This document shows positions 6,928-28,587 of a stretch of DNA of 32,000 nucleotides, one piece after another. This DNA is from Erysipelotrichaceae bacterium (lineage in GTDB: Bacteria; Bacillota_I; Bacilli_A; Erysipelotrichales; Erysipelotrichaceae). The stretch spans positions 720,001 to 752,000 of the forward strand of contig OY781039.1 of the NCBI GenBank assembly GCA_963676105.1, written 5' to 3'. The notes under the pieces were generated by a model. It was not told the DNA's origin. It saw only the letters and a program-made list of their open reading frames with translations, and did not search any database. The number at the start of each line of letters is the position of its first letter. Positions within the stretch are counted from its first letter, which is position 1. The translations under genes and the position numbers were made by a program.

Positions 6928-8628
6928 CTATTTTGAATTAATTAAAGTTTCTAGTAATGCAGTTGCGGTTAATTCTAAGTGATTCTTAGCCGCATCTTTA
7001 ACGCCTAATCCTGAGTAAACTTCACCTACTTGTACACCTGAAGCATCGAGTGCATCAAAGTATTTATCAATCAGTGGATCACAGGTAGCTTGATCTTGCA
7101 TTGGTCCAAATGGATTTGCGAAGTAAGTGACTGAGATACCTGTTTCATGCGTCGTAGCCATCGCCATACGTTTACCGTTAACAAATGTATCCTTGACTTC
7201 ATTTGCACTCTTAACAAGTTTAACACCTGTTTGATTTTCATAGTTATTCGCATAGAAGAAATAATGAACAGGATGGGATGTTGAAATTGTTTCATACGTT
7301 GAAACTGGAATAATAACACGTGCATTGGTACGTTCAGGATTCATAAAGATTGAACGGTCCATAGTTTTATATGGTGTTCCGTTATCTAAGTCATCTAAAC
7401 GGATAAAGGCACCGATTTCAGTTCCTTGGGCAACCACTTTTCCATTTTCAATTTGGAATGTTCCCATATCATCAAAGATAATATCGAAACCTAAGAGGTC
7501 TTCATGACCAAGTAGTTGCATTGCTTCGATGGTTTCTGATTTACCAGCACCACTATCACCCATGAAACATACACCGATTGGATCACGTCCTTTTAAGTGA
7601 ACATTGATCATCGCACCGTGAATTGGTAACCAACCACGCTCCATAACAATCGCATTATGCATGGTTAACATCATTTTCTTCATGTATCCAAAGTATGAAA
7701 TACGTTCGTGGTAAGCTACTTTAGCTGTCCAGATATCATTTTCTTTATCATGGAAATAAGATGTATCTTCTGAACCATCGTTATAACCAAACATCACGAT
7801 TCCATCGACTTTTTTGGTTAAGATTTCCTCTTTAGTCGCAAGTTCAAATAAGTTTGCATTCGAAATGCCAGAGAAAGAGAAATCTTTATGGACATAGACA
7901 TAGATTAATAATTGACCTACTTTTGCAGGATAAACAAAGAAATCATCTTTACTGATATTTAACCCAGCCATTGGATTGTCTTTAACAAGTTGGAATGATC
8001 CAAAACGTTTAGTACCCTTTGGTCTTAAGATTAATGGTGCACGAACCAACATTTGATCAATAAAAGGAACCCCTTTTAAATATTCATAACCTGTTGGAAT
8101 TTTCCATTTAATATCACGTAAAACCATTGATGCGTTTGTGCCAGCTTGAAGTTGACGATAAACGCGATTTTTACTTCCTTGTAGTTTTTCTTGAATACCA
8201 CGATATAGATTTAAAACAGTTGCGTTATAACGTGTATCCATTTCAACAAAGTTATCTGCATGTCCAGACATAGATGTTGAAACTTTTAGGATTGAAACAC
8301 GGGATAGATTACGCCATGTGTTATAGGCATTTTCAACCACCGCCATTAAGCGTTTTGGTTCTTTAACAAGTTCTGAATCAATATCATCTAGTTCTAGTAC
8401 ACTAATTAATTTTAATGTACGAATCAAAGTGATCACGGCTTTAGATTGACTTTCACCTTGTAATAACCACTTATATGTTTTATTTTCTGAGACTTTTAAT
8501 TCATCTAAGAATGTGTTTAAAAAAGTTTTGAAACTGTCATGTGACATTAACTCATCGGCATCTTTTGGGAAGAACGCAGAGAAGTTAACAATCGCTGTAC
8601 CATCATGTATATATAATGCTTCTTTCAT
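6928..8628 (-). CDS. Uncharacterised P-loop protein with an HPr-kinase/PEPCK-like nucleotide-binding core
   Basis: IHGAMINVHLKGRDPIGVCFMGDSGAGKSETIEAM...FDDMG parallels the HprK segment HG..v...G.GvLitGdSGvGKSEtAleL...DD. Downstream, GAFIRL and NARVIIPV are reminiscent of PEPCK. The roughly 330-aa N-terminal region is unrecognised. Confidence 0.5.
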   Translation of the reverse strand: MKEALYIHDGTAIVNFSAFFPKDADELMSHDSFKTFLNTFLDELKVSENKTYKWLLQGESQSKAVITLIRTLKLISVLELDDIDSELVKEPKRLMAVVENAYNTWRNLSRVSILKVSTSMSGHADNFVEMDTRYNATVLNLYRGIQEKLQGSKNRVYRQLQAGTNASMVLRDIKWKIPTGYEYLKGVPFIDQMLVRAPLILRPKGTKRFGSFQLVKDNPMAGLNISKDDFFVYPAKVGQLLIYVYVHKDFSFSGISNANLFELATKEEILTKKVDGIVMFGYNDGSEDTSYFHDKENDIWTAKVAYHERISYFGYMKKMMLTMHNAIVMERGWLPIHGAMINVHLKGRDPIGVCFMGDSGAGKSETIEAMQLLGHEDLLGFDIIFDDMGTFQIENGKVVAQGTEIGAFIRLDDLDNGTPYKTMDRSIFMNPERTNARVIIPVSTYETISTSHPVHYFFYANNYENQTGVKLVKSANEVKDTFVNGKRMAMATTHETGISVTYFANPFGPMQDQATCDPLIDKYFDALDASGVQVGEVYSGLGVKDAAKNHLELTATALLETLINSK

Positions 8629-13779: not shown

Positions 13780-14787
13780 ATGAAACAGATGATATTTATT
13801 TTAGGACTTGCCCTTAGTGGAGCTGGTCTCTATATTGCCTATTTAGGCTTTACACAAATTGATGCATTAGACACTTTAATGTTAGGAGTTTATTTAGGTG
13901 GATCTTTCATCTTGATGACCATTGGACTTTATATGTCTTTAGTGGTCTTTATGAAAAAGAAAACAGTCAAACAGGATGAAAAAGATGAAGAAGAAACACT
14001 AGAAGAAGTTCTTTTAGATTTAGATGAAGATGAGGATGAAGTTCTTGATTCTGAAATTCTTAATATGAGTGAGTCTACCACCATGATTGAAGATACAATG
14101 GTGCTTAATCTTTTTGAAGAAGAAAAACCAGTTGCTGAAGAAAACACTCAAGAACAAGTCATTGAAGATACTATCGAAGAAGAGATCATAGATGAAAAAA
14201 ATGATGACATTCAAACTGAAGATGATCTAGATGTTGAAGATCAATATCAAGAAGAAGAGATACTTGAAGAAGATGATGAGATTCAATTAGTTGAAGAAGA
14301 AGCAGTCATTGATGAGAAAGCTGAAATAAATGATAATGTAATCAAAGATGAAACGCTCGAAGAATTAGCTGAAGAACTTGAAGGAAAACCTTTAGAATCA
14401 CTTATCGATGAAATTGAAGCACCTGTGCTTGAAGATTCAATAGAAAAGACTTTGGTTTCAGATGAATTACATATCACGAGTGAACAAAAAATCTTTAATA
14501 CTGAATTTGTTGAAGCAAGACTCATTGGGATTGAAGGTTTTGGAAAACAACGAATCCTTAAAAAACTGACTGAAGGGACTGAACTGACCTTTAAAGAAAA
14601 CCAAAAACATGGTTTAAAATCATGTGAGATCTTTTATCAAAACAAATCCCTTGGTTACTTATCGAAAGTTGACTACAACAAAATGGTTGATAAATTAGCC
14701 AATGTCTATAAAATAACGATTTCAACCTTTGTTTATGAAAACAATAAAGTTGCGACTGTTATGTTGAATTTCATGTTTAAACAATAA
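13780..14787 (+). CDS. Membrane-anchored protein with a very acidic linker and a HIRAN-like C-terminal domain
   Basis: Two N-terminal TM helices and a roughly 170-aa D/E-rich low-complexity region. The C-terminal pattern is RLIGIEGFG...GTELTFKEN...KSCEIFYQNKSLGYLSK...MVDKL. The HIRAN call rests on that pattern only. Confidence 0.6.
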   Translation: MKQMIFILGLALSGAGLYIAYLGFTQIDALDTLMLGVYLGGSFILMTIGLYMSLVVFMKKKTVKQDEKDEEETLEEVLLDLDEDEDEVLDSEILNMSESTTMIEDTMVLNLFEEEKPVAEENTQEQVIEDTIEEEIIDEKNDDIQTEDDLDVEDQYQEEEILEEDDEIQLVEEEAVIDEKAEINDNVIKDETLEELAEELEGKPLESLIDEIEAPVLEDSIEKTLVSDELHITSEQKIFNTEFVEARLIGIEGFGKQRILKKLTEGTELTFKENQKHGLKSCEIFYQNKSLGYLSKVDYNKMVDKLANVYKITISTFVYENNKVATVMLNFMFKQ

Positions 14788-18129: not shown

Positions 18130-18154
18130 ATTATCAAGCGTTTATTTTTTTCAT

Positions 18155-18178
18155 AAAAAAACCCATATTAAATGGGCT
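18155..18178 (-). terminator. Orphaned tRNA terminator left behind at attL
   Basis: On the minus strand, directly after the orphan tRNA 3' fragment: GCCCAT-TTAAT-ATGGGT followed by a T7 run. Confidence 0.6.
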
Positions 18179-18186
18179 TAGTGAAC

Positions 18187-18206
18187 TAATGGCGTCCTCA
18201 GAGGGA
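18187..18206. repeat. attL core: TAATGGCGTCCTCAGAGGGA (orphan copy of the tRNA-Arg 3' end)
   Basis: Identical 20-mer at 28508-28527. The flanking bases differ on both sides. Confidence 0.9.
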
Positions 18207-18311
18207 AACAAAAAATACGTTATATTAAAGTTCACCAAATTACATAAAACGTTATTTTAAGCCATTTTAGGACATTATCTTTTTTTAAAATTTATAATAA
18301 TTTAAAAATTT

Positions 18312-18334
18312 TGCTAGACTTTTGCTAGACTTTT
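18312..18334. repeat. Tandem 11-bp repeat TGCTAGACTTT x2 (candidate integrase arm-type site, P' arm)
   Basis: The 23-nt string TGCTAGACTTTTGCTAGACTTTT is identical to 28441-28463 and lies 105 bp inside the attL core. Confidence 0.6.
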
Positions 18335-18344
18335 AATAAAGTAT

Positions 18345-18959
18345 TTACTTTTCGTTCATTACCTTATTAGGATCTATTGTTTGTATTTTGGATTTTAAAA
18401 ATTTTGTTAGATCATCTCTATCAATCAATTCAACAAAATTTGATTCTGCTAATTGTATTGCACTTTTGCTAAAGTAGTTATTAGTAACTACAATCGCATT
18501 ATTACATTGATAATGTTTTTTACCAGCAACAACTTCTTGAACAGCTTTCAAGTTTACTTTAGAGTTAAATCTTTTACACTGAATCGCATATTTCAAACCA
18601 TCTTTGTAAGCAATTATGTCAACACCAAAATCACCAGAATATTTAGTTCCCTCAACATCTTCATAATCATTATTTCTAAGATAATCTATGATTAACTCTT
18701 CAAATTCATAACCTGACATTACATCGATATTTTCTAACGTTAATTCTAAAGCATGATAGTAGATTAATTCTTTATTATTAATAAAACTATCTTGACGACT
18801 ACTATTTTTGATTCTATTAAAAATAAAAATAATTATTTCTTTTATTCCATAGTAGATAAAATTTGCTAACGCTACTAATAATGCTCCAAATATCATTAAT
18901 AATGCAGTTATAATGTTTTCAGCAGCTTTATTATTTGGTTTTCTTCCCTCAATACCCAT
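18345..18959 (-). CDS. Membrane-anchored Mrr_cat-type restriction-endonuclease-domain protein
   Basis: N-terminal TM helix (ITALLMIFGALLVALANFIYYGI). The C-terminal half GYEFEELI...GDFGVDIIAY...AIQCKRF...AIVVTNNYFSKSA matches the Mrr/PD-(D/E)xK D...D..QxK core. Confidence 0.7.
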   Translation of the reverse strand: MGIEGRKPNNKAAENIITALLMIFGALLVALANFIYYGIKEIIIFIFNRIKNSSRQDSFINNKELIYYHALELTLENIDVMSGYEFEELIIDYLRNNDYEDVEGTKYSGDFGVDIIAYKDGLKYAIQCKRFNSKVNLKAVQEVVAGKKHYQCNNAIVVTNNYFSKSAIQLAESNFVELIDRDDLTKFLKSKIQTIDPNKVMNEK

Positions 18960-19258
18960 AATTTCTCCTTAAAGTAAATACTACTTCATTATTTACTAAA
19001 ATCTTAACAAAATATGATTAACATATCTAAATATTTTTTTACTACCATAAATTTTTATAAAACTAATTTTTAATTATGAAGATTTAGCAAACTAATATCA
19101 TTGTTTGCTTTGTATTTAATAATATCGTTTATATCCTCCGACAATTTATAAAAATTAAATCAATTAATTTACTGATTAAAATTTAAACTAAAACTTTGAA
19201 TTTAAGAAGGATCACAATAAACCAAAAATTTGATAGTAATACTTTTTTCATTAATTAA

Positions 19259-19302
19259 ACTAGTGTTCTACTAGTGTTTTACATATGTTCTACATATGGA
19301 AA
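19259..19302. repeat. Four 11-bp-phased units (ACTAGTGTTCT, ACTAGTGTTTT, ACATATGTTCT, ACATATGGAAA), followed by GAAAAT x3
   Basis: Read directly from the sequence. An inverted, reshuffled copy of the same unit types lies at 25262-25305. Confidence 0.8.
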
Positions 19303-19456
19303 ATGAAAATGAAAATATAATTATTATTTATTATTAAGCATTTAATAATAAAGACTAAATAATATAAGGATAGAAAAATAAAACATTTTATTATTGTCTA
19401 ACTAAAATGGACATTTAAGTTTTAGTCATGTAATCTTAAAGTGTAATGAGGTATAT

Positions 19457-19873
19457 ATGGAAACAAATCAAAAAGGTAAAGTCTTAGTTACATATAAAAA
19501 TGATAAACATGAATATGTTGAGTTAAATTCCGAAATGGAAGAAGCACTTGCTGGTTTAGAAAAAATTAAAGAAGATATTATAAAACTTAAGCTACTACGC
19601 AATGAGTTACAAGAAAGTCTAAAACAATCAGAAAAAAACATGGTAGCTGAATTATTAAAAACTAAACAGTTTAATTTGAATGGTAAAAGCAAATCAAAAA
19701 GACTTAATCTATACATTCAACCAGAAACACTTGAAGATATTAGAATTGCTGCAAATTTAATGAATATAAGTATCAATGAAATGGTTAACATTCTATTAGA
19801 AGATCGATTAACAGCAATAAGGAATATACCAAGTTTTATAAATGCCAAAAATGAACTAATTGAAAAAGAATGA
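19457..19873 (+). CDS. Coiled-coil protein with a C-terminal ribbon-helix-helix-like DNA-binding domain
   Basis: SD GAGG 7 nt upstream. The C-terminal RLNLYIQPETLEDIRIAANLMNISINEMVNILLEDRL has a strand-helix-helix pattern like CopG/Arc. Confidence 0.55.
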   Translation: METNQKGKVLVTYKNDKHEYVELNSEMEEALAGLEKIKEDIIKLKLLRNELQESLKQSEKNMVAELLKTKQFNLNGKSKSKRLNLYIQPETLEDIRIAANLMNISINEMVNILLEDRLTAIRNIPSFINAKNELIEKE

Positions 19874-19908
19874 TTAAAATTCTTTTTTTTTGTTATTTTT
19901 AAATTTAG

Positions 19909-19966
19909 TGTTGTTTTGGCACTATTATAGTGCTACAATGGCACTATAAAAGAAGTGATAGTTATA
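19909..19966. promoter_or_regulatory. Operator-like dyads upstream of the 63-aa RHH gene
   Basis: GCACTAT-T-ATAGTGC (19909-19923), a third GCACTAT half-site (19931-19937) and a perfect 12-bp palindrome TAGGTATACCTA (19955-19966). Confidence 0.5.
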
Positions 19967-20038
19967 GGTATACCTAAAATTATTTGGTTTTAAAAACATT
20001 CTACTTACTTTTCAAAAGAATCAAGAGGTTTAATAACA

Positions 20039-20230
20039 TTGAAAAAAAACAAACAAATTGGTAGACCAAGAAAAGATCCAAATTTAAGAAGAAGTAATAG
20101 GCTTGTAGTTAAATTAGATCGTTTAACATATGAATCATTTATTAAGAAGTGCATCCATGATGATATTCCTATTAATAAAAAAATGACTTATTTGATTCAT
20201 AGTTACTTGGACGAAGACATAAGCGAATAA
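20039..20230 (+). CDS. Small ribbon-helix-helix (CopG-like) protein
   Basis: 63 aa with a TTG start. GRPRK basic tail, then a beta-strand (RLVVKLDRLTY) and two helices. Confidence 0.5.
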   Translation: MKKNKQIGRPRKDPNLRRSNRLVVKLDRLTYESFIKKCIHDDIPINKKMTYLIHSYLDEDISE

Positions 20231-20346
20231 CAGGAGTGTTATTTACACTAGTCAGAGGATTAGATGTCGTCGTAAAACTGGTTATCATTCCTAAAAAAAA
20301 TGAAAAGTTCTTCAGAGTTATTTATTAACTCAAATTCTTCGTAAGT

Positions 20347-20498
20347 GGTTAAAGTTCCACACAAAAACTATCTTTTAAGTTCATAGTTCCTTTCTATGAT
20401 GGTTAGTATTCCAGTCAAAAATACAAAATTCCATAAGCTAATAGTTCCATGTTACTTATGGCATTACCCCCTTAATGGTTAGAGTTCCATTCAAAAAC
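20347..20498. repeat. Three 22-bp iteron-like direct repeats GGTTArnkTTCCAnnCAAAAAy plus TTCCA partial copies
   Basis: GGTTAAAGTTCCACACAAAAAC (20347), GGTTAGTATTCCAGTCAAAAAT (20401), GGTTAGAGTTCCATTCAAAAAC (20477). Partial copies are at 20381-20390 and 20427-20452. All lie within a 358-bp non-coding gap. Confidence 0.75.
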
Positions 20499-20588
20499 TC
20501 AACTATTCTATTTAAAAGGTAAATGATCCTTTAAATCATTAGTGGATAACCACTTAAAAGCTTTGAACAAAGCAAGAAAGGCAATTAA

Positions 20589-21515
20589 ATGCAAAAAAGT
20601 AAATATGGTATTCAACAGTTTCTAAAAGAAAACAATCTTACCGAAAACGAATATAGACAAATTTTCAAAAAGATTGTTCACAATGAACCTCTAAACGTTC
20701 CGGAAACAAAATCAATGATTAATTTCATTGATAATAAAAACAACCCTGTAATGCTCCCGAATGAGCAGTCAGATGAATTAATTGATTCATCAAATAATAG
20801 TAGTGAACTAATAAGAAATTTAGATCATCTATTCAACATTAATAGTAAAGATACTAGATTCAGTTTCCCTGTTGCTGTTATTGAAGAATCTGAAAACACA
20901 TTAAAACAATTAGAAGCAAGTTATAAGACAAGTGGATTATTTATCAAAATCTCAGAGTCATATGCTTTAACTCCTAATATTGATGACATTATCTTTATTG
21001 GATTAAAAAATCAATTTGTTAGTTTTATCGATTCAAAGGTTATTACAGCTGATGGTTCTGATTTATCACACTATGGGTTACCAGTTGCTGGTAGCGGAAC
21101 AGATGGTGCTTATGTGCTTGATACAGATTTAGTGCAAACAACATCAATTACAGAAGCAAATTTAATAAGTTTATCAAAAATGGTAAAAGGACATCCAAAA
21201 TCAAAATACATTATGAATGAAACTACATTTTTAGATAATGTCTTACCACTAATGGCAACAAGTAACTTCATCACACAAAACAGTGATGGGAAATACTTAA
21301 TTGGGCAAAAAGAAATTATTTTAAATGAGAATGTACCAAGTGATGTTATTTATGCGAGTGATTTATCTTACTTAGTTGGTGATTACTCTTTAGAGTTTGC
21401 CGCAAGAAATCTAATTAAAGAATTTATGAATGAGTATAGATTACTTGTAAAAAGTGTTCTATTACCAGCTGCTGGTTATGGTGCATTTGCGAAATTAGAA
21501 ATTGTTGCTGAATAG
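20589..21515 (+). CDS. Putative HK97-fold major capsid protein
   Basis: 308 aa. Its C-terminal third (YLIGQKEIILNENVP...LVGDYS...EYRLLVKSVLLPAAGYGAFAKLEI) follows the Phage_capsid pattern l.G.pv..s..v...vGDf...r...r....AFakL, as in staphylococcal 80alpha-type capsid proteins. Confidence 0.6.
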   Translation: MQKSKYGIQQFLKENNLTENEYRQIFKKIVHNEPLNVPETKSMINFIDNKNNPVMLPNEQSDELIDSSNNSSELIRNLDHLFNINSKDTRFSFPVAVIEESENTLKQLEASYKTSGLFIKISESYALTPNIDDIIFIGLKNQFVSFIDSKVITADGSDLSHYGLPVAGSGTDGAYVLDTDLVQTTSITEANLISLSKMVKGHPKSKYIMNETTFLDNVLPLMATSNFITQNSDGKYLIGQKEIILNENVPSDVIYASDLSYLVGDYSLEFAARNLIKEFMNEYRLLVKSVLLPAAGYGAFAKLEIVAE

Positions 21516-21556
21516 CAAATAATATTCATTATTAGCTGAAAGGCTTGGAGGGAAAT

Positions 21557-21820
21557 ATGAATACAAAATCGTTAGAAGTGATTCTTAATCAATTAGAGGA
21601 AGTAAGTTTAGAAATGGATAATCTCAAAGGTGTTCTAGATAATCTAAGTTTACATAATGCAATTAGTTTAGATGGACTTAATGAAATTAACGCTAAATCT
21701 TTCGATAGTGCTGCATTTGTAATTAAAACACTTAGAAAAGAAATTGATAATGTTACAGACACAATGAGACATGAATATTCTTCTAGATTTGATCAAGATA
21801 CTTTATTAGAAATCAAATAA
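21557..21820 (+). CDS. Hypothetical coiled-coil protein (between the capsid-like and tape-measure-like genes)
   Basis: The SD GGAGGG precedes ATG 21557, so the TTG at 21545 in the track is unlikely. No recognisable motif. Confidence 0.5.
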   Translation: MNTKSLEVILNQLEEVSLEMDNLKGVLDNLSLHNAISLDGLNEINAKSFDSAAFVIKTLRKEIDNVTDTMRHEYSSRFDQDTLLEIK

Positions 21821-21939
21821 AGAAAGGAAGTGTTAATATCGAACTATTTAGATTATTTGGATCAATTCTTATTGATGACCAAGATGCAATTGATACTTTA
21901 AAAAAATCTGAAAAAAATGCTAAAGCATCAGCTAATGCT

Positions 21940-23319
21940 ATGAATGATTTATCCAAAAAAGCAAGTGCAATGGGTAAAGCATTAGCAATTGGCGTTGGTG
22001 CAGCTGTTACATCACTTGGTGGGTTAGTGGCAAAATCTATTGATACAACAGATCGCATTGATAAATTATCTCAAAGTTTGGGAATGTCTACCGAAGGTTT
22101 TCAAGAATGGGATTATATTTTAGGACAAAATGGTGTTTCTATTGACTCTATGACAACTGGCATGAAAACACTAACAAACATGACTGATGATCTTAAAAAA
22201 GGTAGTAAAACAGCAACTGATGCATTTAGTCGTTTAGGAATTAGTTTTGATGATGTAGCGGGTAAAACACAAGAAGATATTTTCAATCTAACTATTGATG
22301 CATTGATGACTGTTACTGATGAAAGTGAAAGAGCTGCATTAGCAAATGATTTACTTGGCAAAAGTGGAGCTGAATTAGCACCATTATTAAATCAAGGTTC
22401 TAATGCTGTTGAAGAATTAAGACAAAATGCTCATGAACTTGGATTAGTTATTGACGAAGAAGCTATTAGTGCTGGTGTAGAGTTAGGTGATACTTGGGAT
22501 GATGTAACAAGGTCATTTGGTGCTATTGCTACTAGAATTGGTACTGAAGTAATGCCAATCGTACAAGACTTTTCAAATTGGATTTTAGACAATATGCCAA
22601 CAATTCAAGAAGTAACTAGTAATGTATTTAATTCAATTTCTAACTCAATTAAATGGGTTACAGATAATTCAAAATGGCTTATTCCAGTATTAGGTGGATT
22701 AGTTACTGGATTCATGGCATTAAGCATAATTGGATCTGTTACAGCATGGATGCAAAAATATGGTGAAGTTACAACATTTACTCAAATTGCATCAGCATTA
22801 CTTAATTCAACTATGTTAGCCAATCCATTTGCATGGGTAGCGTTGGCTATTGGTGGATTAGTAGCAGCAGGTATAGCTCTATGGATGAACTGGGACACAG
22901 TTAAAGTAAAAGCAACTGAACTATGGGAAAGCATTAAATCAGTATTTGGTAAAATTAAAGATTTTGTATCGAGTGTTTGGGACACAGTTAAGTCAGTTGT
23001 TAAATTACCAAAGATAAATATTCAAGGAAGTTTAAATCCTTTAACATGGCTTACACAAGGAATGCCAGAGTTTAGTGTTAGCTGGAATGCTGATGGTGCA
23101 ATATTCAAGAAACCTACAATCTTTGATACACAATTTGGTTATCAAGGTGTAGGCGAAGCAGGACCGGAAGTTGTTATGCCTTTAGATCGTTTAGATTCAA
23201 TGTTGAAAAACAAAGGTGGTAATCAAATTACAGTTTATTTCCAACCACAAACAATGAGCGATCAAGAGCTTGATAATGCATTTAATTATATTAACAGACG
23301 ATTTGGAATGGAAATATAG
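21940..23319 (+). CDS. Short phage tail tape-measure-like protein
   Basis: FSRLGISFDDVAGKTQEDIFNLTIDAL...ERAALANDLLGKSGAELAPLL core, central hydrophobic helices, and a C-terminal GVGEAGPEVVMPL motif typical of Firmicute phage tape-measure proteins. The frame is open and tape-measure-like back to 21793 (see finding). Confidence 0.7.
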   Translation: MNDLSKKASAMGKALAIGVGAAVTSLGGLVAKSIDTTDRIDKLSQSLGMSTEGFQEWDYILGQNGVSIDSMTTGMKTLTNMTDDLKKGSKTATDAFSRLGISFDDVAGKTQEDIFNLTIDALMTVTDESERAALANDLLGKSGAELAPLLNQGSNAVEELRQNAHELGLVIDEEAISAGVELGDTWDDVTRSFGAIATRIGTEVMPIVQDFSNWILDNMPTIQEVTSNVFNSISNSIKWVTDNSKWLIPVLGGLVTGFMALSIIGSVTAWMQKYGEVTTFTQIASALLNSTMLANPFAWVALAIGGLVAAGIALWMNWDTVKVKATELWESIKSVFGKIKDFVSSVWDTVKSVVKLPKINIQGSLNPLTWLTQGMPEFSVSWNADGAIFKKPTIFDTQFGYQGVGEAGPEVVMPLDRLDSMLKNKGGNQITVYFQPQTMSDQELDNAFNYINRRFGMEI

Positions 23320-23322
23320 AAC

Positions 23323-23655
23323 ATGGAAAAATATTACTTATTCCTAATCGATATGACTAAAGGTAAACCAAAAGAAATACCAATTCCAATGAATGAAGAA
23401 CAAATCATTAAATTCATTAACAAACAAGATGAAGAAACACTTAATAAAAATTTCATTTATGGATTTAGATTAGGTAAAAATGGAATACAAAACGTTAAGT
23501 GTTTCCATTATGCAAAACATAGCTATGCTTTTGTAAATGACTTCATTGATTCAAAGGTAAACGAACTTTTAAAAAATCATAAAAAAAATAATATGTTTAA
23601 GTTTATAAAACATCAAAAGGAATCATCTAATGAAAAAAATCAGAAGCATCGCTAA
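23323..23655 (+). CDS. Hypothetical protein
   Basis: 110-aa ORF packed tightly after the tape-measure-like gene on the operon strand. No motif recognised. Confidence 0.45.
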   Translation: MEKYYLFLIDMTKGKPKEIPIPMNEEQIIKFINKQDEETLNKNFIYGFRLGKNGIQNVKCFHYAKHSYAFVNDFIDSKVNELLKNHKKNNMFKFIKHQKESSNEKNQKHR

Positions 23656-23863
23656 AGAAAACAATACTGAGATTTTGTATAAACTCTTATACATCAATAA
23701 AGTAACTGGTGAAACTAACATGAGTAATCGATATGTTTCAGAAGCTAGAGCAAAGCTTATTAGCGAAATAGATGAACACAAGAACACAAGGATCATTGGT
23801 ATTCCAAATGTAAGTGTTGCTAGTGGTGATGGTGATAATAATTTCATTGTTTTCAAAAATTAA
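23630..23863 (+). CDS. Hypothetical protein
   Basis: 77-aa ORF on the operon strand, overlapping the previous ORF's end. It is mirrored by an antisense ORF, so coding status is uncertain. Confidence 0.35.
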   Translation: MKKIRSIAKENNTEILYKLLYINKVTGETNMSNRYVSEARAKLISEIDEHKNTRIIGIPNVSVASGDGDNNFIVFKN

Positions 23864-23876
23864 TTAGAACCTTAAT

Positions 23877-23932
23877 ACCTGCCCCCATGTAACATGGTAA
23901 TGGCAAAAGCATTCCACCGGCCGGGTACAATC
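23877..23932. other. GC-rich palindrome-bearing patch upstream of terS (candidate cos/packaging site)
   Basis: CCTGCCCCCATGTAACATGGTAATGGCA...CCACCGGCCGGGT contains the CCATG-TAA-CATGG hairpin and the CCGGCCGG palindrome. It is the most GC-rich non-coding stretch in an otherwise AT-rich element. Confidence 0.35.
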
Positions 23933-24087
23933 ATCTAACTCAATAAAAAATCGTTTAGGGTGGTGTGGTTAAAGCATCAAAAGAAAGAAACATTTAAACC
24001 GATTTCAAAGGATTTTGAGTGATATTGAAAAAGTTCAAAAAAGAAAACCCATTTAAAAAAGAAATTGAATGATTAATAATTTGAAAT

Positions 24088-24582
24088 TTGAAATCACACT
24101 CCCCTATCAAATTTATTGATAAAAAAACAAATAACAGGAAACGGACTATAGCTATAACTCTAGAGAAATATTCAAACTCTCACATGATAAGGGGTTATAG
24201 AGAAAGGATAATAACAAGAATGATTAAAATTGAGCAAACACATAAAGAAATGCTTATTGAAAATTTAAATAATACTTTATTAGAGATATTCTCAACTATC
24301 GATGATAACAAGCTTACGATCATAAAACCATTAATCAACAAAGCTGCATTTATGTCAGTAACATTGGATGAATTGCAAGACAACATTTTAAAAAGTGGAA
24401 TTTCTGAAACTTACAAAAATGGTGCAAATCAATATGGTAATAAAGAATCAACAGAAATTAGAGTCTATAACTCTATGATCAAAAACTATCACAATGTTGT
24501 TAAACAACTTCTGGATCTATTACCACCAGATTCAAGTGAATACGTTGTTGGGACAAGTTTATTAGAATTTGCAAACAGATAA
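24088..24582 (+). CDS. terS: Phage terminase small subunit, P27-like family
   Basis: LINKAAFMSVTLDELQDNILKSGISETYKNGANQYGNKESTEIRVYNSMIKNYHNVVKQLLDLLP fits the P27-family pattern (l.e.l...G......ng.....np......n........l..elgl.P). The start is uncertain: TTG 24088, ATG 24184 or ATG 24220. Confidence 0.6.
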   Translation: MKSHSPIKFIDKKTNNRKRTIAITLEKYSNSHMIRGYRERIITRMIKIEQTHKEMLIENLNNTLLEIFSTIDDNKLTIIKPLINKAAFMSVTLDELQDNILKSGISETYKNGANQYGNKESTEIRVYNSMIKNYHNVVKQLLDLLPPDSSEYVVGTSLLEFANR

Positions 24583-24719
24583 TAAGTTAAATAATAACAA
24601 GCCTGTAATGGCTTAAAAATGGCTAATAATAGCAAAATAATTATCAACCACTAATGGGTGCGTGAAAATAAAAATAAGAAACAAACGCACTCATTATAAA
24701 TAGAAAGGTGCGTTTTAAA

Positions 24720-24965
24720 ATGCAATACAAAACTACAAGAAAAGAAATGATTAGAAATACTATCATTCAGAGAAATATATCAAATAATGATTTTGAAATT
24801 ACAAGATTATCTGAAATCATTGTTAGATTCTCACCAAGCAATTATGAATTAAAAAAAGGTCTAGATTTAATAATCAAGTACAAAGATAAGGTAGATAATC
24901 TAGCTGGATACACACATAAGATTTTTACAAATATAAAAAAGAATAGAGAAATGTATCATGGCTAA
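24720..24965 (+). CDS. Hypothetical protein
   Basis: The SD AGAAAGG precedes ATG 24720. Its end overlaps the next gene's start by 8 nt (24958-24965). No motif recognised. Confidence 0.45.
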   Translation: MQYKTTRKEMIRNTIIQRNISNNDFEITRLSEIIVRFSPSNYELKKGLDLIIKYKDKVDNLAGYTHKIFTNIKKNREMYHG

Positions 24966-25632
24966 AGATCCTGCATTTCTATTCTATAGTTCTGATTTCC
25001 TCGTAGGTACTTATGGAATGTCAAACGAAGAAGTAGGACAGTATATAAGATTACTTTGTTTACAACATCAAAACAATGGGAAACTGACTCAAGATATTGT
25101 TGAAAGTGTTGGCATAGAAGAACATTCTAAAGTTCTTTCAAAATTTAAATTTGAAGACGGCTTCTATTTTAATGAAAGATTACTTCAAGAAACTGAAAAA
25201 AGAACTAAGTTCTCTGAAAGCAGAAGAAACAACAGATTAAAAAGAGAAGAAAATAAGAAATCTAACACTAGTAAAACACTAGTAAAAGATATGTTAAACA
25301 CTAGTAACAATAATGATAATAAAGAATTAAATCAAAATAAAGATTTGATTAAAGAAATCATTCAATATCTAAATGAAAAAACAAACAAGAACTTTAGATA
25401 TGTAAAGAAAACTAGTGATCTAATAACAGCTAGAATTAATGAAAAATTTACTTTAGAAGATTTTAAAACAGTAATTGATAATATGACTGATAAATGGCTT
25501 AAAGATAATAATATGAATCAATACCTAAGACCAGAAACATTGTTTGGCACAAAATTTGAATCATATTTAAATGTAAAAACTACAACAAGTAAAAACACAT
25601 CCAATTACGGGGAACTAGGGAGAATTGTATGA
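24958..25632 (+). CDS. Phage replisome organiser-like protein (DUF1376/YdaU N-domain plus Phg_2220_C C-domain)
   Basis: N-terminal DPAFLFYSSDFLVGTYGMSNEEVGQYIRLLCLQ. C-terminal IIQYLNEKTNKNFRY...ARINEKFTLEDFKTVIDNM...YLRPETLFGTKFESYLN. Confidence 0.75.
   Translation: MAKDPAFLFYSSDFLVGTYGMSNEEVGQYIRLLCLQHQNNGKLTQDIVESVGIEEHSKVLSKFKFEDGFYFNERLLQETEKRTKFSESRRNNRLKREENKKSNTSKTLVKDMLNTSNNNDNKELNQNKDLIKEIIQYLNEKTNKNFRYVKKTSDLITARINEKFTLEDFKTVIDNMTDKWLKDNNMNQYLRPETLFGTKFESYLNVKTTTSKNTSNYGELGRIV
25262..25305. repeat. Four 11-bp-phased units inside the organiser gene (reverse complement: ACTAGTGTTTA, ACATATCTTTT, ACTAGTGTTTT, ACTAGTGTTAG); candidate origin iterons
   Basis: CTAACACTAGT AAAACACTAGT AAAAGATATGT TAAACACTAGT, read directly. 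The array lies in the linker between the two protein domains and has the same unit types as 19259-19302, on the opposite strand. Confidence 0.75.
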
Positions 25633-26597
25633 AAAAAATAAATGAATTAATGAATAATGAATTAGATAAAAAAGAAATAAAAACAGAAAGTATTGATATA
25701 GCTAGTTTGAAACCATTTTTAGGGCATATCCCTTTCACAGTTGAACATGAAAATGGTTTGTGTACAGCTGGAATTTCAATAAATGGTAAAGCTGGAATTT
25801 ATAACTTATTCACAGATGAAGAAATGATGATAAATCATAATTACGTACATTTGAGATCATTTCATGACAATATAAACGAAAAATTTATGCAAGGTAAAGT
25901 GAAATGTCTTGTTTGTGGTGATACAGGATACCAGCCTATTGCACTAAATGAATTAATACATATTAAAGGTACTGATTATTTAGTTAAACAAGGAGCATTA
26001 GAAAAAGTAAGATGCAAATATTGTGATATTAGCAACAGCAATCCATTAAATATGAATAATTTTAGGACAACATATCAATGGCAAAAGGATGCAAAAAATG
26101 TTGCATTATCATTTATAGAAGATTTAAATCACCTTAATTATTGGTTTTATTTCTCTGGACAAGTAGGATCTGGTAAGACTCATTTGAGCTATGCAATCGC
26201 AAATGAATTAAAACATAAATTTGGATATGAAATAGTAATAAAAAATTGGATGGAATTAGCAACATTTTTAAAAGAAAATACAAATACAAAATCATATAGC
26301 AATGAAATTAGTTATTTAAGCAAAGTTAAAGTATTAGTAATTGATGATCTTTTCAAAAACGGGAATAAAGAAAAACCAACTACAGCAGACAACAGAATTG
26401 CAATGCAAATCTTAAATAAGCGTTATGAAGCCAAATTAATTACAATTATTAATTCTGAATTTTCATTGGGTGAAATTATAAATAATTTTGATTCAGCATA
26501 TTCAAGGATTTACGAGATGTCTAAGAATGGTAGTTATATTTTTCATATAAATAATGATCCTAAAAAGAATATTAGAATGAACCCTATGAAAGATTAG
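25629..26597 (+). CDS. DnaC/IstB-like AAA+ helicase-loader ATPase with an N-terminal Cys4 zinc-ribbon-like segment
   Basis: Walker A GQVGSGKTHL, Walker B VLVIDDLF, and CLVCGDTG...CKYCD. Its start overlaps the organiser stop (ATGA). Confidence 0.75.
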   Translation: MKKINELMNNELDKKEIKTESIDIASLKPFLGHIPFTVEHENGLCTAGISINGKAGIYNLFTDEEMMINHNYVHLRSFHDNINEKFMQGKVKCLVCGDTGYQPIALNELIHIKGTDYLVKQGALEKVRCKYCDISNSNPLNMNNFRTTYQWQKDAKNVALSFIEDLNHLNYWFYFSGQVGSGKTHLSYAIANELKHKFGYEIVIKNWMELATFLKENTNTKSYSNEISYLSKVKVLVIDDLFKNGNKEKPTTADNRIAMQILNKRYEAKLITIINSEFSLGEIINNFDSAYSRIYEMSKNGSYIFHINNDPKKNIRMNPMKD

Positions 26598-26617
26598 GTA
26601 ACAATAGGAGGTTACTT

Positions 26618-27739
26618 ATGGTTAGAAAGAATAAGGAAGGTGTTTACTATTTTTATGTCAGATACACTGATAATCAAGGTAATTTAAAACAAAAATACTC
26701 AAAGAGCAAGAAATGGAAAACTAAAAAAGAAGCTTTAAAAGCTGAAAATGATTTCTTAGAATCAGTCAAAAAAGACATTGATTTAGTTTTTGATAACATT
26801 ACACTTGATAAACTTTATAGTATTTATTTTGAATCAAAATCACATCATCTTAAAAAGAAATCTTTATACACATTAGATCACGCATATAGGCGACACATAA
26901 GCCCAAAATTTGGCAAACAAATAATAAATACCATAACAAAGCAAGATATTATGATATGGCAAAAACATTTATTAGCAAAAGGTTTTAAAAATCAGTATTT
27001 AGAGAAGATACAAGCCAATTTAAGAAGTATTCTTATCTTTGGAGTTAAATATGACTATATTGAAAAAAACCCTTTTAAAATCGATTTTATAAAGGATAAA
27101 ACTGAAACCAAAAAAGAAATGTCATATTGGAACTTACAAGAATATGAAAAATTTATTAGTCATGTAGATGATGAATTGTATGCAGCATTATTTGCTACTT
27201 TGTATTGGGGTGGTTTAAGAATTGGTGAAGCATTAGCTTTAAGAGTAAGTGATATTAACTTTAAAACTAAAATCATAAACATTAATAAAACATATAATAG
27301 CGTTCACCAGATCGATACAACTCCAAAAACGCATAATTCAAATCGAAATATCATTATGACAGATGGACTTTGTAATCAACTTAAAAAGATTGTTGATTCA
27401 TATAAAAACTACGCTGGAATTGATACAGGATATGATCCAATTATATTTGGATATAATGGTAGACTTGCTCCAACGACAATAAAAAGAAAACAAAAAGAAG
27501 CTTGTGAAGAAGCTGGTGTTAAAGTTATCAGAATTCATGATTTTAGGCACTCTCACGTATCATTATTATTAAACTTAGGTGAAGATGCCTTTGTTATTGC
27601 AAAACGCTTAGGACATAGCGTAGAGATGGTAAACAACGTCTATGGACACTGGTTCTTAGACTCACAAAAGGAATTGGTAGATCGTTTGAATCAAGCTGAG
27701 AATAAAGCCAATAAATTAAGAGAAACTAGAATTAACTAG
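26618..27739 (+). CDS. int: Tyrosine integrase (phage integrase family) with an N-terminal arm-binding-type domain
   Basis: Catalytic context GLRIGEALALRVSDI (R), IRIHDFRHSHVS (HxxR) and LGHSVEMVNNVYGHW (H...Y). The N-terminal GVYYFYVRYTDNQGNLKQK resembles integrase Arm-DNA-binding domains. Confidence 0.9.
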   Translation: MVRKNKEGVYYFYVRYTDNQGNLKQKYSKSKKWKTKKEALKAENDFLESVKKDIDLVFDNITLDKLYSIYFESKSHHLKKKSLYTLDHAYRRHISPKFGKQIINTITKQDIMIWQKHLLAKGFKNQYLEKIQANLRSILIFGVKYDYIEKNPFKIDFIKDKTETKKEMSYWNLQEYEKFISHVDDELYAALFATLYWGGLRIGEALALRVSDINFKTKIININKTYNSVHQIDTTPKTHNSNRNIIMTDGLCNQLKKIVDSYKNYAGIDTGYDPIIFGYNGRLAPTTIKRKQKEACEEAGVKVIRIHDFRHSHVSLLLNLGEDAFVIAKRLGHSVEMVNNVYGHWFLDSQKELVDRLNQAENKANKLRETRIN

Positions 27740-27750
27740 TTTCTTTTTTT
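27722..27750. terminator. Bidirectional terminator between int and the convergent membrane-protein gene
   Basis: GAAACTAG-AATTAA-CTAGTTTC followed by T7. The hairpin includes the int TAG stop codon. Confidence 0.6.
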
Positions 27751-28348
27751 ATTCAAAAAAGTATTTCAATGTCATTTTAGTTTTTAAATAATATCTTGCT
27801 CCCACAGAATCAATTACATATACATCAATCTTTGCATTTAAGTCATAATCATCTTTTAACAAAAGCTTAAGATTTTCAATTGGAAAATATAGGTCATGCG
27901 ATTCTTCAGATAAAAGAGCTATTGGCATATTTTCAGTTGTTAAAGTCATTGGATTTTGTGGAAAAAGTAAAAAATGCTGTTTTTTTATAATTAATCTCCA
28001 CGATTGAATATTTACACTTCTGACACCAGTGTTAGATATACATAAATCTAAAAATTCCTTATTATATCCATTAGCATTAACAACAGTTGATTTATTCAAA
28101 GATAATTTTAATCTTTTAGAATTATTATAATTGTGTTGGAATAAGGCAACAAACACAGCTAAAAACGTAGCAGTAGATCCAATTGCACTCCATAATAATT
28201 GTCTATCAATTAATCCTGTTTCATTATCAATAAATAAAACCAACGCTAACTTTCTAGAAAATATTATAAATACTAACATTACTAAACATAAGATACTAAT
28301 ATTTATGTTTTTTTTGTTTCTTTCGTAAAATTGATTAATTTTTCTCAT
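27749..28348 (-). CDS. Hypothetical two-TM membrane protein (cargo between int and attR)
   Basis: 199 aa. Two TM helices (ISILCLVMLVFIIF, AIGSTATFLAVFVALF) followed by a beta-rich soluble domain. No family recognised. Confidence 0.55.
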   Translation of the reverse strand: MRKINQFYERNKKNINISILCLVMLVFIIFSRKLALVLFIDNETGLIDRQLLWSAIGSTATFLAVFVALFQHNYNNSKRLKLSLNKSTVVNANGYNKEFLDLCISNTGVRSVNIQSWRLIIKKQHFLLFPQNPMTLTTENMPIALLSEESHDLYFPIENLKLLLKDDYDLNAKIDVYVIDSVGARYYLKTKMTLKYFFE

Positions 28349-28440
28349 ATTTTTATCATCCTTTATTATTGATTTAATTATATAATTTTGCTTTTTTTTA
28401 ATGTATGAAAAACACTTACATTACTATTTTTAGTAAAAAC

Positions 28441-28463
28441 TGCTAGACTTTTGCTAGACTTTT
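28441..28463. repeat. Tandem 11-bp repeat TGCTAGACTTT x2 (candidate integrase arm-type site, P arm)
   Basis: Identical to 18312-18334. It ends 44 bp before the attR core. Confidence 0.6.
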
Positions 28464-28476
28464 TAATTTTTGTATT

Positions 28477-28499
28477 AAAAAACCCTTTATTTAAGGGCT
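28477..28499 (-). terminator. Element-borne terminator now serving the reconstituted tRNA-Arg
   Basis: On the minus strand just 3' of the tRNA: CCCTT-AAATA-AAGGG followed by T6. It resembles the orphan terminator at 18155-18178. Confidence 0.6.
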
Positions 28500-28507
28500 T
28501 TTAGAAA

Positions 28508-28527
28508 TAATGGCGTCCTCAGAGGGA
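28508..28527. repeat. attR core: TAATGGCGTCCTCAGAGGGA
   Basis: Identical to 18187-18206. Bases 28511-28527 are the last 17 nt of the tRNA, including CCA. Confidence 0.9.
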
Positions 28528-28587
28528 TTCGAACCCCCGACCGTGCGCTTAGAAGGCGCATGCTCTATCCAGCTGAGCTATGAGGAC
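28511..28587 (-). tRNA. tRNA-Arg (anticodon UCU), CCA encoded
   Basis: Manual cloverleaf: acceptor GTCCTCA/TGAGGAC, D arm GCTC-AGCTGGATA-GAGC, anticodon arm TGCGC-CTTCTAA-GCGCA, variable loop CGGTC, T arm GGGGG-TTCGAAT-CCCTC, discriminator G, CCA. Confidence 0.9.

Follow-up and report, generated by a model that had tools for sequence, protein, structure and literature searches.

A probable helper-dependent phage satellite with its own capsid homologue and tape-measure gene in a gut-type Erysipelotrichaceae bacterium

In a 32-kb stretch of DNA from an uncultured gut-type Erysipelotrichaceae bacterium (hereafter the window), we identified an island of 10,321 bp (18207-28527), inserted in a tRNA-Arg gene between direct repeats, which is probably an integrative helper-dependent satellite of HK97-like siphophages. 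The island possesses intact attachment (att) sites, an integrase, its own replication initiator and loader, a small terminase (TerS), a capsid protein truncated in its delta domain, and a full-length tail tape-measure protein (TMP). The presumed helper would be of a type with the module HNH-TerS-TerL-portal-S78 protease-capsid protein-...-TMP (TerL, large terminase), as found in L014, L015, L017, L019, and L172/L173. Throughout the text, L-numbers refer to loci compared in this analysis and P-numbers to protein records, and w138, w63, w91, and w77 designate the island proteins of 138, 63, 91, and 77 aa.

Results

Organization of the island

The direct repeat bordering the island has a length of 66 nt (18141-18206 and 28462-28527) and ends in a 20-nt exact core, which includes the last 17 nt of tRNA-Arg(TCT). 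With 27.6%, the G+C content of the island differs from that of its flanks (34.5–35.3%). The UvrC encoded by the host is 90% identical to that of an Erysipelotrichaceae metagenome-assembled genome (OY760660.1). Annotation revealed 14 open reading frames (ORFs) in all, intact and closely spaced, twelve of them co-oriented on the plus strand (Table 1). All twelve had already been listed in an earlier sequence-only reading, which took this co-oriented block for the element; the block was found as described, but the island turned out to be larger and to include two minus-strand genes that had been left out. Apart from the listed ORFs, none of more than 204 aa was found on either strand in 18.2–28.5 kb, so that genes for TerL and portal are truly absent from the island, in agreement with that reading. 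Based on the ORF list and profile searches, no genes for portal, TerL, protease, connectors, tail tube, baseplate, or lysis were found in the island, and an Rfam scan resulted in the tRNA as sole match.

A capsid homologue lacking most of its delta domain

Searched alone, the 308-aa protein resulted in no Pfam, PHROG, or NCBIfam match. An exhaustive HMMER search tied it to 54 proteins, among which those of 370–400 aa are ordinary HK97-type capsid proteins that align only from their residue ~80–95 on. Residue 10 of the island protein aligns with residue 97 of the capsid protein of the L017 prophage, and in comparison to the latter its delta (scaffolding) domain is short of about 87 residues at the N-terminus, while the conserved EYR...ExRA motif from the end of phage delta domains is retained. 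An AlphaFold2 model built from 46 sequences reached a predicted local distance difference test score (pLDDT) of 89 and a predicted template modelling score of 0.86, and Foldseek assigned it a probability of 1.0 to capsid proteins of HK97, P2/P4, RcGTA, and phage-inducible chromosomal islands of the capsid-forming type (cf-PICIs). In a search of the family profile against PDB sequences, RcGTA (4e-24), phi12 (7e-18), cf-PICI (1e-13), and HK97 (1e-9) were hit; of PDB entry 7RWZ, the profile matched the phi12 capsid chain only and no other chain. Furthermore, the relatives P0002, P0004, and P0008 carry the domain PF05065. Judged by the predicted fold and these profile matches, the 308-aa protein is a genuine HK97 capsid-protein homologue without most of the delta domain, which bears out its earlier designation as an HK97-like capsid protein. 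Its gene encodes no full delta domain and is accompanied neither by a separate scaffold gene nor by adjacent protease and portal genes.

Five clusters of capsid relatives of ~300 aa (P0002–P0005 and P0008) were never found beside a portal or protease gene; their contexts consist of small genes, replication genes, or partition genes. At least four further small non-phage contexts contain the short capsid gene together with counterparts of its small partner genes in the island. The gene order in L002 is capsid, a w91-like gene, a 456-aa TMP, SSB, and a w77-like gene, thus repeating the order capsid, w91, TMP of the island, with a capsid protein that is only 38% identical and a TMP that is 39% identical over its N-terminal half. 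L009 displays a w63-like gene, capsid, a helix-turn-helix gene, SSB, a w91-like gene, and a w77-like gene, with no TMP there, and in L010 w138-like, w63-like, and w91-like genes are followed by the capsid gene. Since the TMP gene is present in L002 and absent from L009, it behaves as an exchangeable cassette in a conserved backbone. Locus L011 (226-4467, Logan ERR3839023) harbors, in this order, a Phg_2220_C replisome organiser and a DnaC-like gene (47% and 35% identical to those of the window, respectively), a 314-aa capsid relative, and a ParA ATPase, which suggests a plasmid-like, non-integrated version of this element family. In L012 (JGI 3300031485) and L013 (Logan SRR34859213), two cold-shock-domain genes, a 313-aa short capsid protein (PF05065), and an 82-aa gene were identified in this order, and no head module was found around the short capsid gene. 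The conservation of the short capsid gene and its small partners at 33–39% identity in such small non-phage contexts points to long-term selection on this architecture. A scan of the JGI metagenome collection for the capsid family resulted in nothing confirmed, and a scan of IMG/VR revealed only ordinary phage capsid proteins together with portal and protease genes.

A tape-measure gene shared with complete siphophages

The TMP matched phrog_8462 at 2e-55. Its Pfam score for PF10145 was 30.3, slightly under the cut-off of 33.2, and an RcGTA_tape motif was matched by residues 380-418. Central hydrophobic helices and the motif GEAGPE..PL at the C-terminus, both pointed out in the sequence-only reading, agree with a TMP. 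Its closest relatives, among them those of L014, L015, L017, L019, and L173, are 59–71% identical, have 466–500 aa, and stem from complete siphophages. All six relatives inspected (6/6) are located in canonical modules with HNH, TerS, TerL, portal, S78 protease, capsid protein, connectors, tube, chaperones, TMP, and Dit. Similarly, relatives from IMG/VR revealed ordinary tail modules wherever the upstream sequence sufficed, and none had satellite-like neighbours. The nucleotide homology to phages spans 21813-23318, which is exactly the TMP gene. The TMP had been described earlier as complete and miniature. It is indeed genuine and complete, but not miniature, as 466–500 aa are normal in the donor phage lineage.

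With regard to the start of this gene, an open and conserved stretch of 34 codons in frame lies 5' of ATG 21940, and the start codon of the phage TMPs aligns with ATC 21838, seven bases past a AAAGGAAG Shine-Dalgarno sequence (21823-21830). Based on this alignment, translation probably starts at ATC 21838, giving a protein of 493 aa. In a TMP tree, the terminal branch of the island protein had a length of 0.16, compared to 0.05–0.18 for the phage TMPs.

A small terminase homologue

The TerS reading frame opens with TTG, and two further start options were identified, namely ATG 24184 (132 aa, corresponding to NCBI/ENA record P0177) and ATG 24220 (120 aa, with a Shine-Dalgarno sequence), so that the true length is likely 120–132 aa. 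Its homologues are genes of 105–130 aa directly 5' of TerL in L004, L014, L015, L017, L019, and L172, which fits its previous naming as a small terminase; the more specific label P27-type, by comparison, has its basis in weak matches of 14 of 20 homologues to Terminase_4 (PF05119; best E 8e-5), and the TerS of the window itself had no Pfam match even at E 10. A phage contig of 34.6 kb (L172/L173) carries both a TerS (57%) and a TMP (62%) similar to those of the island, and the corresponding identities in L019 are 47% and 64%.

The spacer 5' of terS contains the island's only CCGGTGG, a heptamer that is conserved 5' of terS in L014, L015, L017, and L172. The alignment of this spacer with the phage regions 5' of terS was not convincing, and CCGGTGG, as the sole shared heptamer, is a weak lead.

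A complete prophage at the orthologous site

Analysis of L017 (JGI 3300003660, a contig of 117.8 kb) revealed a complete siphovirus prophage at the orthologous tRNA-Arg site of a related Erysipelotrichaceae genome, whose trigger factor and Lon are 69% and 81% identical to those of the window. The genes of the prophage are arranged as TerS, TerL, portal, S78 protease, capsid protein ... 500-aa TMP ... M23 peptidase. An identity of ~71% to 18141-18260 (attL) of the window was found for the prophage region 16540-16740 in L017, which comprises the terminator, the tRNA fragment, and the inner arm of the att site. As in the window, h244, trigger factor, and Lon genes lie next to this att site. Based on the homologous att arm and these flanking genes, the attB is common to the island and the presumed helper lineage.

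The structural genes of the L017 prophage run towards the att end (TerS ... capsid ... TMP ... lysis), whereas those of the island lead away from it, beginning with capsid, followed by TMP, TerS, replication genes, and integrase. A remnant of the related prophage formed by simple deletion is ruled out by gene order and orientation relative to att; the prophage with a deleted middle, which the sequence-only reading had named as the alternative to look for in relatives, does not fit the related genome with the same tRNA-Arg site. Comparison with phages via BLASTn resulted in the TMP as the only whole-gene homology; beyond it, matches were limited to a short segment within terS and to the att arm. 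Altogether, gene order, orientation, and the recurring short-capsid family argue for a selected architecture and not for decay.

Other genes and candidate regulatory sites

The remaining features of the island are listed in Table 1. Two genes at the start of the co-oriented block had been read as ribbon-helix-helix regulators, of which w138 revealed a sub-threshold CopG match and w63 no family match at all. A homologue of w138 (L010_142) was found in the related locus L010, and homologues of w63 sit 5' of the capsid-like gene in relatives. All four exact copies of TGGTTANNNTTCC lie between the w63 gene and the capsid-like gene, and the total of eight matches with up to one mismatch was reached in 0 of 100 shuffles. 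An analogous pair, GGTTACCGCACC..TAACAAAA, was observed 5' of the capsid-like gene of L010, and in the window, L009, and L010 a short hairpin and, after it, a YAAAA run are located immediately before the start of the capsid gene. As a guess, w91 might act in assembly or in size determination; the idea that it is a delta or scaffolding domain in detached form was rejected (hhalign probability 1.3%).

At the other end of the block, the earlier assignments of a replisome organiser, a DnaC-like loader, and an integrase were confirmed; the organiser matched Phg_2220_C, the loader is a DnaC/IstB-like ATPase, and the integrase is of the tyrosine type. The integrase carries an Arm-DNA-bind_4 domain, and its relatives, found on prophage-like contigs, are only ~41% identical. 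A further GCTAGACTTTT copy is located at 28441-28463; these repeats thus lie ~100 bp inside attL and ~50 bp inside attR.

With regard to the two minus-strand genes, PADLOC resulted in matches of the Mrr-type nuclease to the ZorD nuclease domain, PDC-S02, and a type IV restriction endonuclease, and in nothing else on the island. This nuclease is presumably accessory, defence-like cargo. Both cargo genes sit at the ends of the island, a typical place for defence cargo in satellites. In the host region of the window, two ORFs (6928-8628, minus strand, 566 aa, and 13780-14787, plus strand, 335 aa) had no Pfam match at E 1e-5; a homologue of the 335-aa ORF adjoins the prophage end in L017.

Table 1. 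Features of the island and its borders (positions in the window).
Feature	Position	Strand	Remarks
attL core, exact copy of the tRNA-Arg 3' end	18187..18206		preceded by original tRNA terminator (18141-18186)
tandem GCTAGACTTTT repeats	18309..18334	+	candidate integrase arm-type binding sites, putative function
204-aa membrane-anchored Mrr_cat restriction-endonuclease-like protein	18345..18959	-	Pfam Mrr_cat 1e-30
138-aa putative CopG/RHH-like regulator (w138)	19457..19873	+	CopG_antitoxin E 1.5e-4, under curated cut-off
63-aa basic DNA-binding-like protein (w63)	20039..20230	+	homologues in L009, L010, L003; no family match
four direct repeats TGGTTANNNTTCC(N)CAAAAA	20279..20499	+	candidate operator/regulatory array, putative function
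308-aa HK97-fold major-capsid-protein homologue	20589..21515	+	structure model, profiles, alignment
91-aa helical protein (w91)	21545..21820	+	87 aa from first ATG; kept near capsid-like gene in L002, L009, L010
tail tape-measure protein	21838..23319	+	493 codons from ATC 21838, or 459 aa from ATG 21940
110-aa protein	23323..23655	+	weak relatives L002_111, L009_75
77-aa protein (w77)	23630..23863	+	conserved in L009, E 3e-10
spacer 5' of terS, candidate cos/pac site	23864..24087		G+C up to 38% vs ~25% around
small terminase homologue	24088..24582	+	164-aa ORF from TTG; phrog_1066 9e-29
85-aa protein	24708..24965	+	no family match
224-aa replisome organiser	24958..25632	+	DUF1376 N-terminus and Phg_2220_C
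322-aa DnaC/IstB-like AAA+ helicase loader	25629..26597	+	profile matches
373-aa tyrosine integrase	26618..27739	+	arm-binding, SAM-like, and catalytic domains
199-aa predicted two-helix membrane protein	27749..28348	-	no family match; accessory cargo
attR core	28508..28527		overlaps 3' end of intact tRNA-Arg(TCT), 28511-28587, minus strand

Discussion

Proposed mechanism

In the mechanism that we propose, the island would excise and replicate after induction of, or infection by, a helper, and its TerS would recruit the TerL (and HNH) of the helper to satellite DNA, possibly at the spacer 5' of terS. The helper, an HK97-like siphophage of the HNH-cos type, would contribute TerL and HNH, further portal, protease, connectors, tube, and baseplate, and also the functions for lysis. 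The orphan capsid protein may co-assemble with the capsid protein, portal, and protease of the helper into small capsids, like Ccm of SaPIbov5; alternatively, it might form the shell itself, as proposed for the Extracellular Prophage-Inducing Particles (EPIPs). The satellite TMP would take the place of the helper TMP in otherwise helper-made tails, analogous to the phage-inducible chromosomal island-like elements (PLEs). With 10.3 kb, the island has ~30% of the size of the 34.6-kb related phage contig, and the ratio between P4 and P2 is similar (11.6 kb vs ~33 kb).

Since the TMP of the island has the length found in the helper lineage, a changed tail length is not expected, which makes it unlikely that the element sets its own tail length, as had been considered in the sequence-only reading. 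Based on this equal length, a benefit is more likely to lie in the identity of the TMP than in the length of the tail. Speculatively, TMP identity could matter for compatibility with chaperones and tube, for evading interference or superinfection exclusion directed at the TMP, or for interference with the helper.

Comparison with known satellites

EPIPs are satellites of ~11 kb from Mycolicibacterium aichiense, e.g., Alyssa1 (OR387110) (PMC12822802). In Alyssa1 (L175, 7458-10310), a 274-aa capsid gene is directly followed by that for a 651-aa TMP, and TerS opens the genome. EPIPs and the island are alike in a short delta-less capsid protein, TMP, and TerS in the same cyclic order, in having an integrase, and in the absence of TerL, portal, tail tube, and lysis genes. 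While EPIPs carry a head-to-tail adaptor and a stopper besides a serine integrase, in some cases together with a scaffold, the island harbors a tyrosine integrase and DnaD/DnaC-type replication genes; adaptor and stopper were not detected in it and a serine integrase is absent, so that its gene set differs from the one that characterizes EPIPs, which also includes an HTH protein. Moreover, EPIPs with their TMP of 651 aa have tails longer than those of the helper and an actinobacterial host, whereas the island TMP has helper-lineage length. At the sequence level, tblastn between EPIP and island resulted in nothing below E 0.03, and only the capsid proteins could be related, with an hhalign probability of 78%.

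PLEs of Vibrio cholerae build their own TMP into chimeric tails, and deletion of tmp cuts the transduction of PLE11 by ~99.9%; some cf-PICIs carry tmp genes as well (PMC12987554). As in PLEs, the TMP of the island is related to that of the presumed helper lineage, but the PLE protein is ~20% identical to that of ICP1 and 95 aa shorter, in contrast to 59–71% identity and equal length in our case. PLEs additionally have a gene for a tail assembly chaperone and in some cases one for a baseplate hub, none of which was identified in the island, and they use the helper capsid protein with the external scaffold TcaP, whereas the island has its own capsid homologue. Their helper is a myovirus and their host Gram-negative, unlike the presumed helper and the host of the island.

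With respect to the capsid, Ccm of SaPIbov5 is a capsid homologue with a shortened delta domain that forms the pentamers of small T=4 capsids and cannot assemble alone (PMC8569155; PMC5052747). Ccm and the island protein are alike as HK97 homologues with a shortened delta domain that are encoded without a portal or protease gene, but Ccm keeps a delta domain of 87 aa, compared to ~40 residues before the mature fold in the island protein. SaPIbov5 is cos-packaged, with PICI-type regulation and replication modules. It is not known to carry TerS or a TMP.

Like the island, cf-PICIs have their own capsid protein and TerS; they steal helper tails, and a subset has a predicted tmp gene (PMC10085698; PMC12987554). 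Their head module is complete, comprising portal, protease, head-tail adaptor, connector, and often HNH and TerL, in contrast to a capsid homologue and TerS only in the island. The PICI architecture, with an integrase beside divergent regulators followed by a primase-replicase, was not found either: the integrase ends the co-oriented block, and no primase was found in the island, replication being represented by a DnaD-like organiser and a DnaC-like loader. PICIs are further distinguished by having no capsid, tail, or lysis genes, and the island has a capsid homologue and a TMP. Among the 'unique and specific' features of PICIs (PMC6092414) is an att site that they do not share with prophages; in the L017 host, a full prophage was found in the orthologous tRNA-Arg site. 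SatelliteFinder treats tail profiles as 'forbidden' components (PMC10085698), so that elements like the island would be rejected.

In the sequence-only reading, a capsid, TMP, and TerS set had been thought of as an undescribed strategy. This has been overtaken, as EPIPs (PMC12822802), PLEs and some cf-PICIs (PMC12987554), and Ccm (PMC8569155) precede it, though the set was first reported for other satellites only in 2025–2026. The island is a sequence-unrelated variant in Bacillota of this recently recognised kind of satellite.

Weighing of alternative explanations

Instead of a satellite, the island could be a cryptic, rearranged prophage remnant of the siphophage lineage that uses the tRNA-Arg site, with capsid, TMP, and TerS as leftovers without a present role, which we consider unlikely. 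Such an origin would agree with the full prophage of a related lineage in the orthologous att site and its homologous att arm, with the replacement of the TMP ATG by ATC, with a complete element seen in one genome only, and with helper dependence and packaging being deduced from genes alone. The order capsid, TMP, TerS, replication, integrase and its direction relative to att, however, cannot be derived by deletions, 14 of 14 ORFs are intact and closely spaced, whole-gene DNA homology to phages is limited to the TMP, whose branch length is not raised, and the short capsid gene is conserved with its partners (33–39%) in small non-phage contexts. Based on these points, we prefer a satellite over decay, as did the sequence-only reading. 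An integrative defence or interference island that is not packaged, with the capsid and TMP homologues as dominant-negative decoys poisoning siphophage assembly, appears improbable. Some proteins of satellites and prophages are known to prevent the assembly of tails or capsids, e.g., Rta (PMC12987554) and, reportedly, Tai (PMC11364771) and Tab (PMC10884400); an Mrr-type nuclease is aboard, and a truncated delta domain could give a capsid protein that co-assembles yet cannot complete a shell. But TerS, a replication module, and an integrase are needed by a mobilised satellite and not by a pure defence island, and since interference and self-packaging coexist in every studied satellite, this explanation overlaps with that of a satellite and does not replace it. 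Least probable by far is that the 308-aa protein builds an encapsulin-like nanocompartment or coats a mini HK97 virus that has no portal, with no relation to the hijacking of tailed phages. Although encapsulins of families 1 and 2 were also among the Foldseek matches, at similar scores, mini genomes of 5–11.6 kb with an HK97 fold that lack portal and terminase have been described (bioRxiv 10.1101/2025.06.18.659913), and L011 pairs a capsid-like gene with ParA and replication genes, the profiles group the 308-aa protein with phage capsids (RcGTA, phi12, cf-PICI, HK97) and not with encapsulins. In addition, the EYR...ExRA motif is retained, the gene is co-transcribed with a bona fide TMP gene near that for TerS, and no cargo-type gene is adjacent.

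Several observations weigh against the helper-dependent satellite that we favor. We infer excision, packaging, and helper from the genes of the 32-kb window alone, and no candidate for a tail assembly chaperone, head-tail adaptor, or scaffold was identified in the island. Its TMP gene has no canonical start codon where the phages have ATG, and instead of starting at ATC, it may have a damaged start codon. The TerS model, with a pLDDT of 86, resulted in no significant PDB fold match, and TerS had no PDB sequence match. Among the best 120 TMP relatives, none but the island's own was recorded on a contig that reaches the length of its chromosome (1.96 Mb), and weak evidence points to a close helper prophage not being resident there. 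The capsid-like family is extremely rare: 1.84 billion representatives yielded ~8 short relatives, and neither the 185,579 species genomes nor IMG/VR yielded any. No second complete element was seen, because all relatives are on short contigs. The uncultured host, the great rarity of the family in public data, and a helper that is putative set the limits of our analysis.

Significance

Taken further, though tentatively, the island may belong to a new Bacillota satellite family comprising L002, L009, L010, and possibly the plasmid-like L011. Its members would employ a minimal hijack at three points, in which a delta-truncated capsid protein with a helical partner of ~70–100 aa would set a small capsid, TerS would redirect packaging, and an exchangeable TMP cassette would be captured gene-for-gene from the current helper lineage and incorporated into the tails of the helper; SatelliteFinder would systematically miss such a family. 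The island flags a blind spot in detection, as current satellite finders disqualify tail genes (PMC10085698). If it is a working satellite, it would extend both the satellites with their own TMP and those with a lone capsid homologue to gut-type Bacillota, and it would combine both features with TerS in only 10 kb. With a TMP captured precisely at its gene borders and 59–71% identical to those of the helper type, it would provide a clean system for studying why satellites need a TMP of their own.

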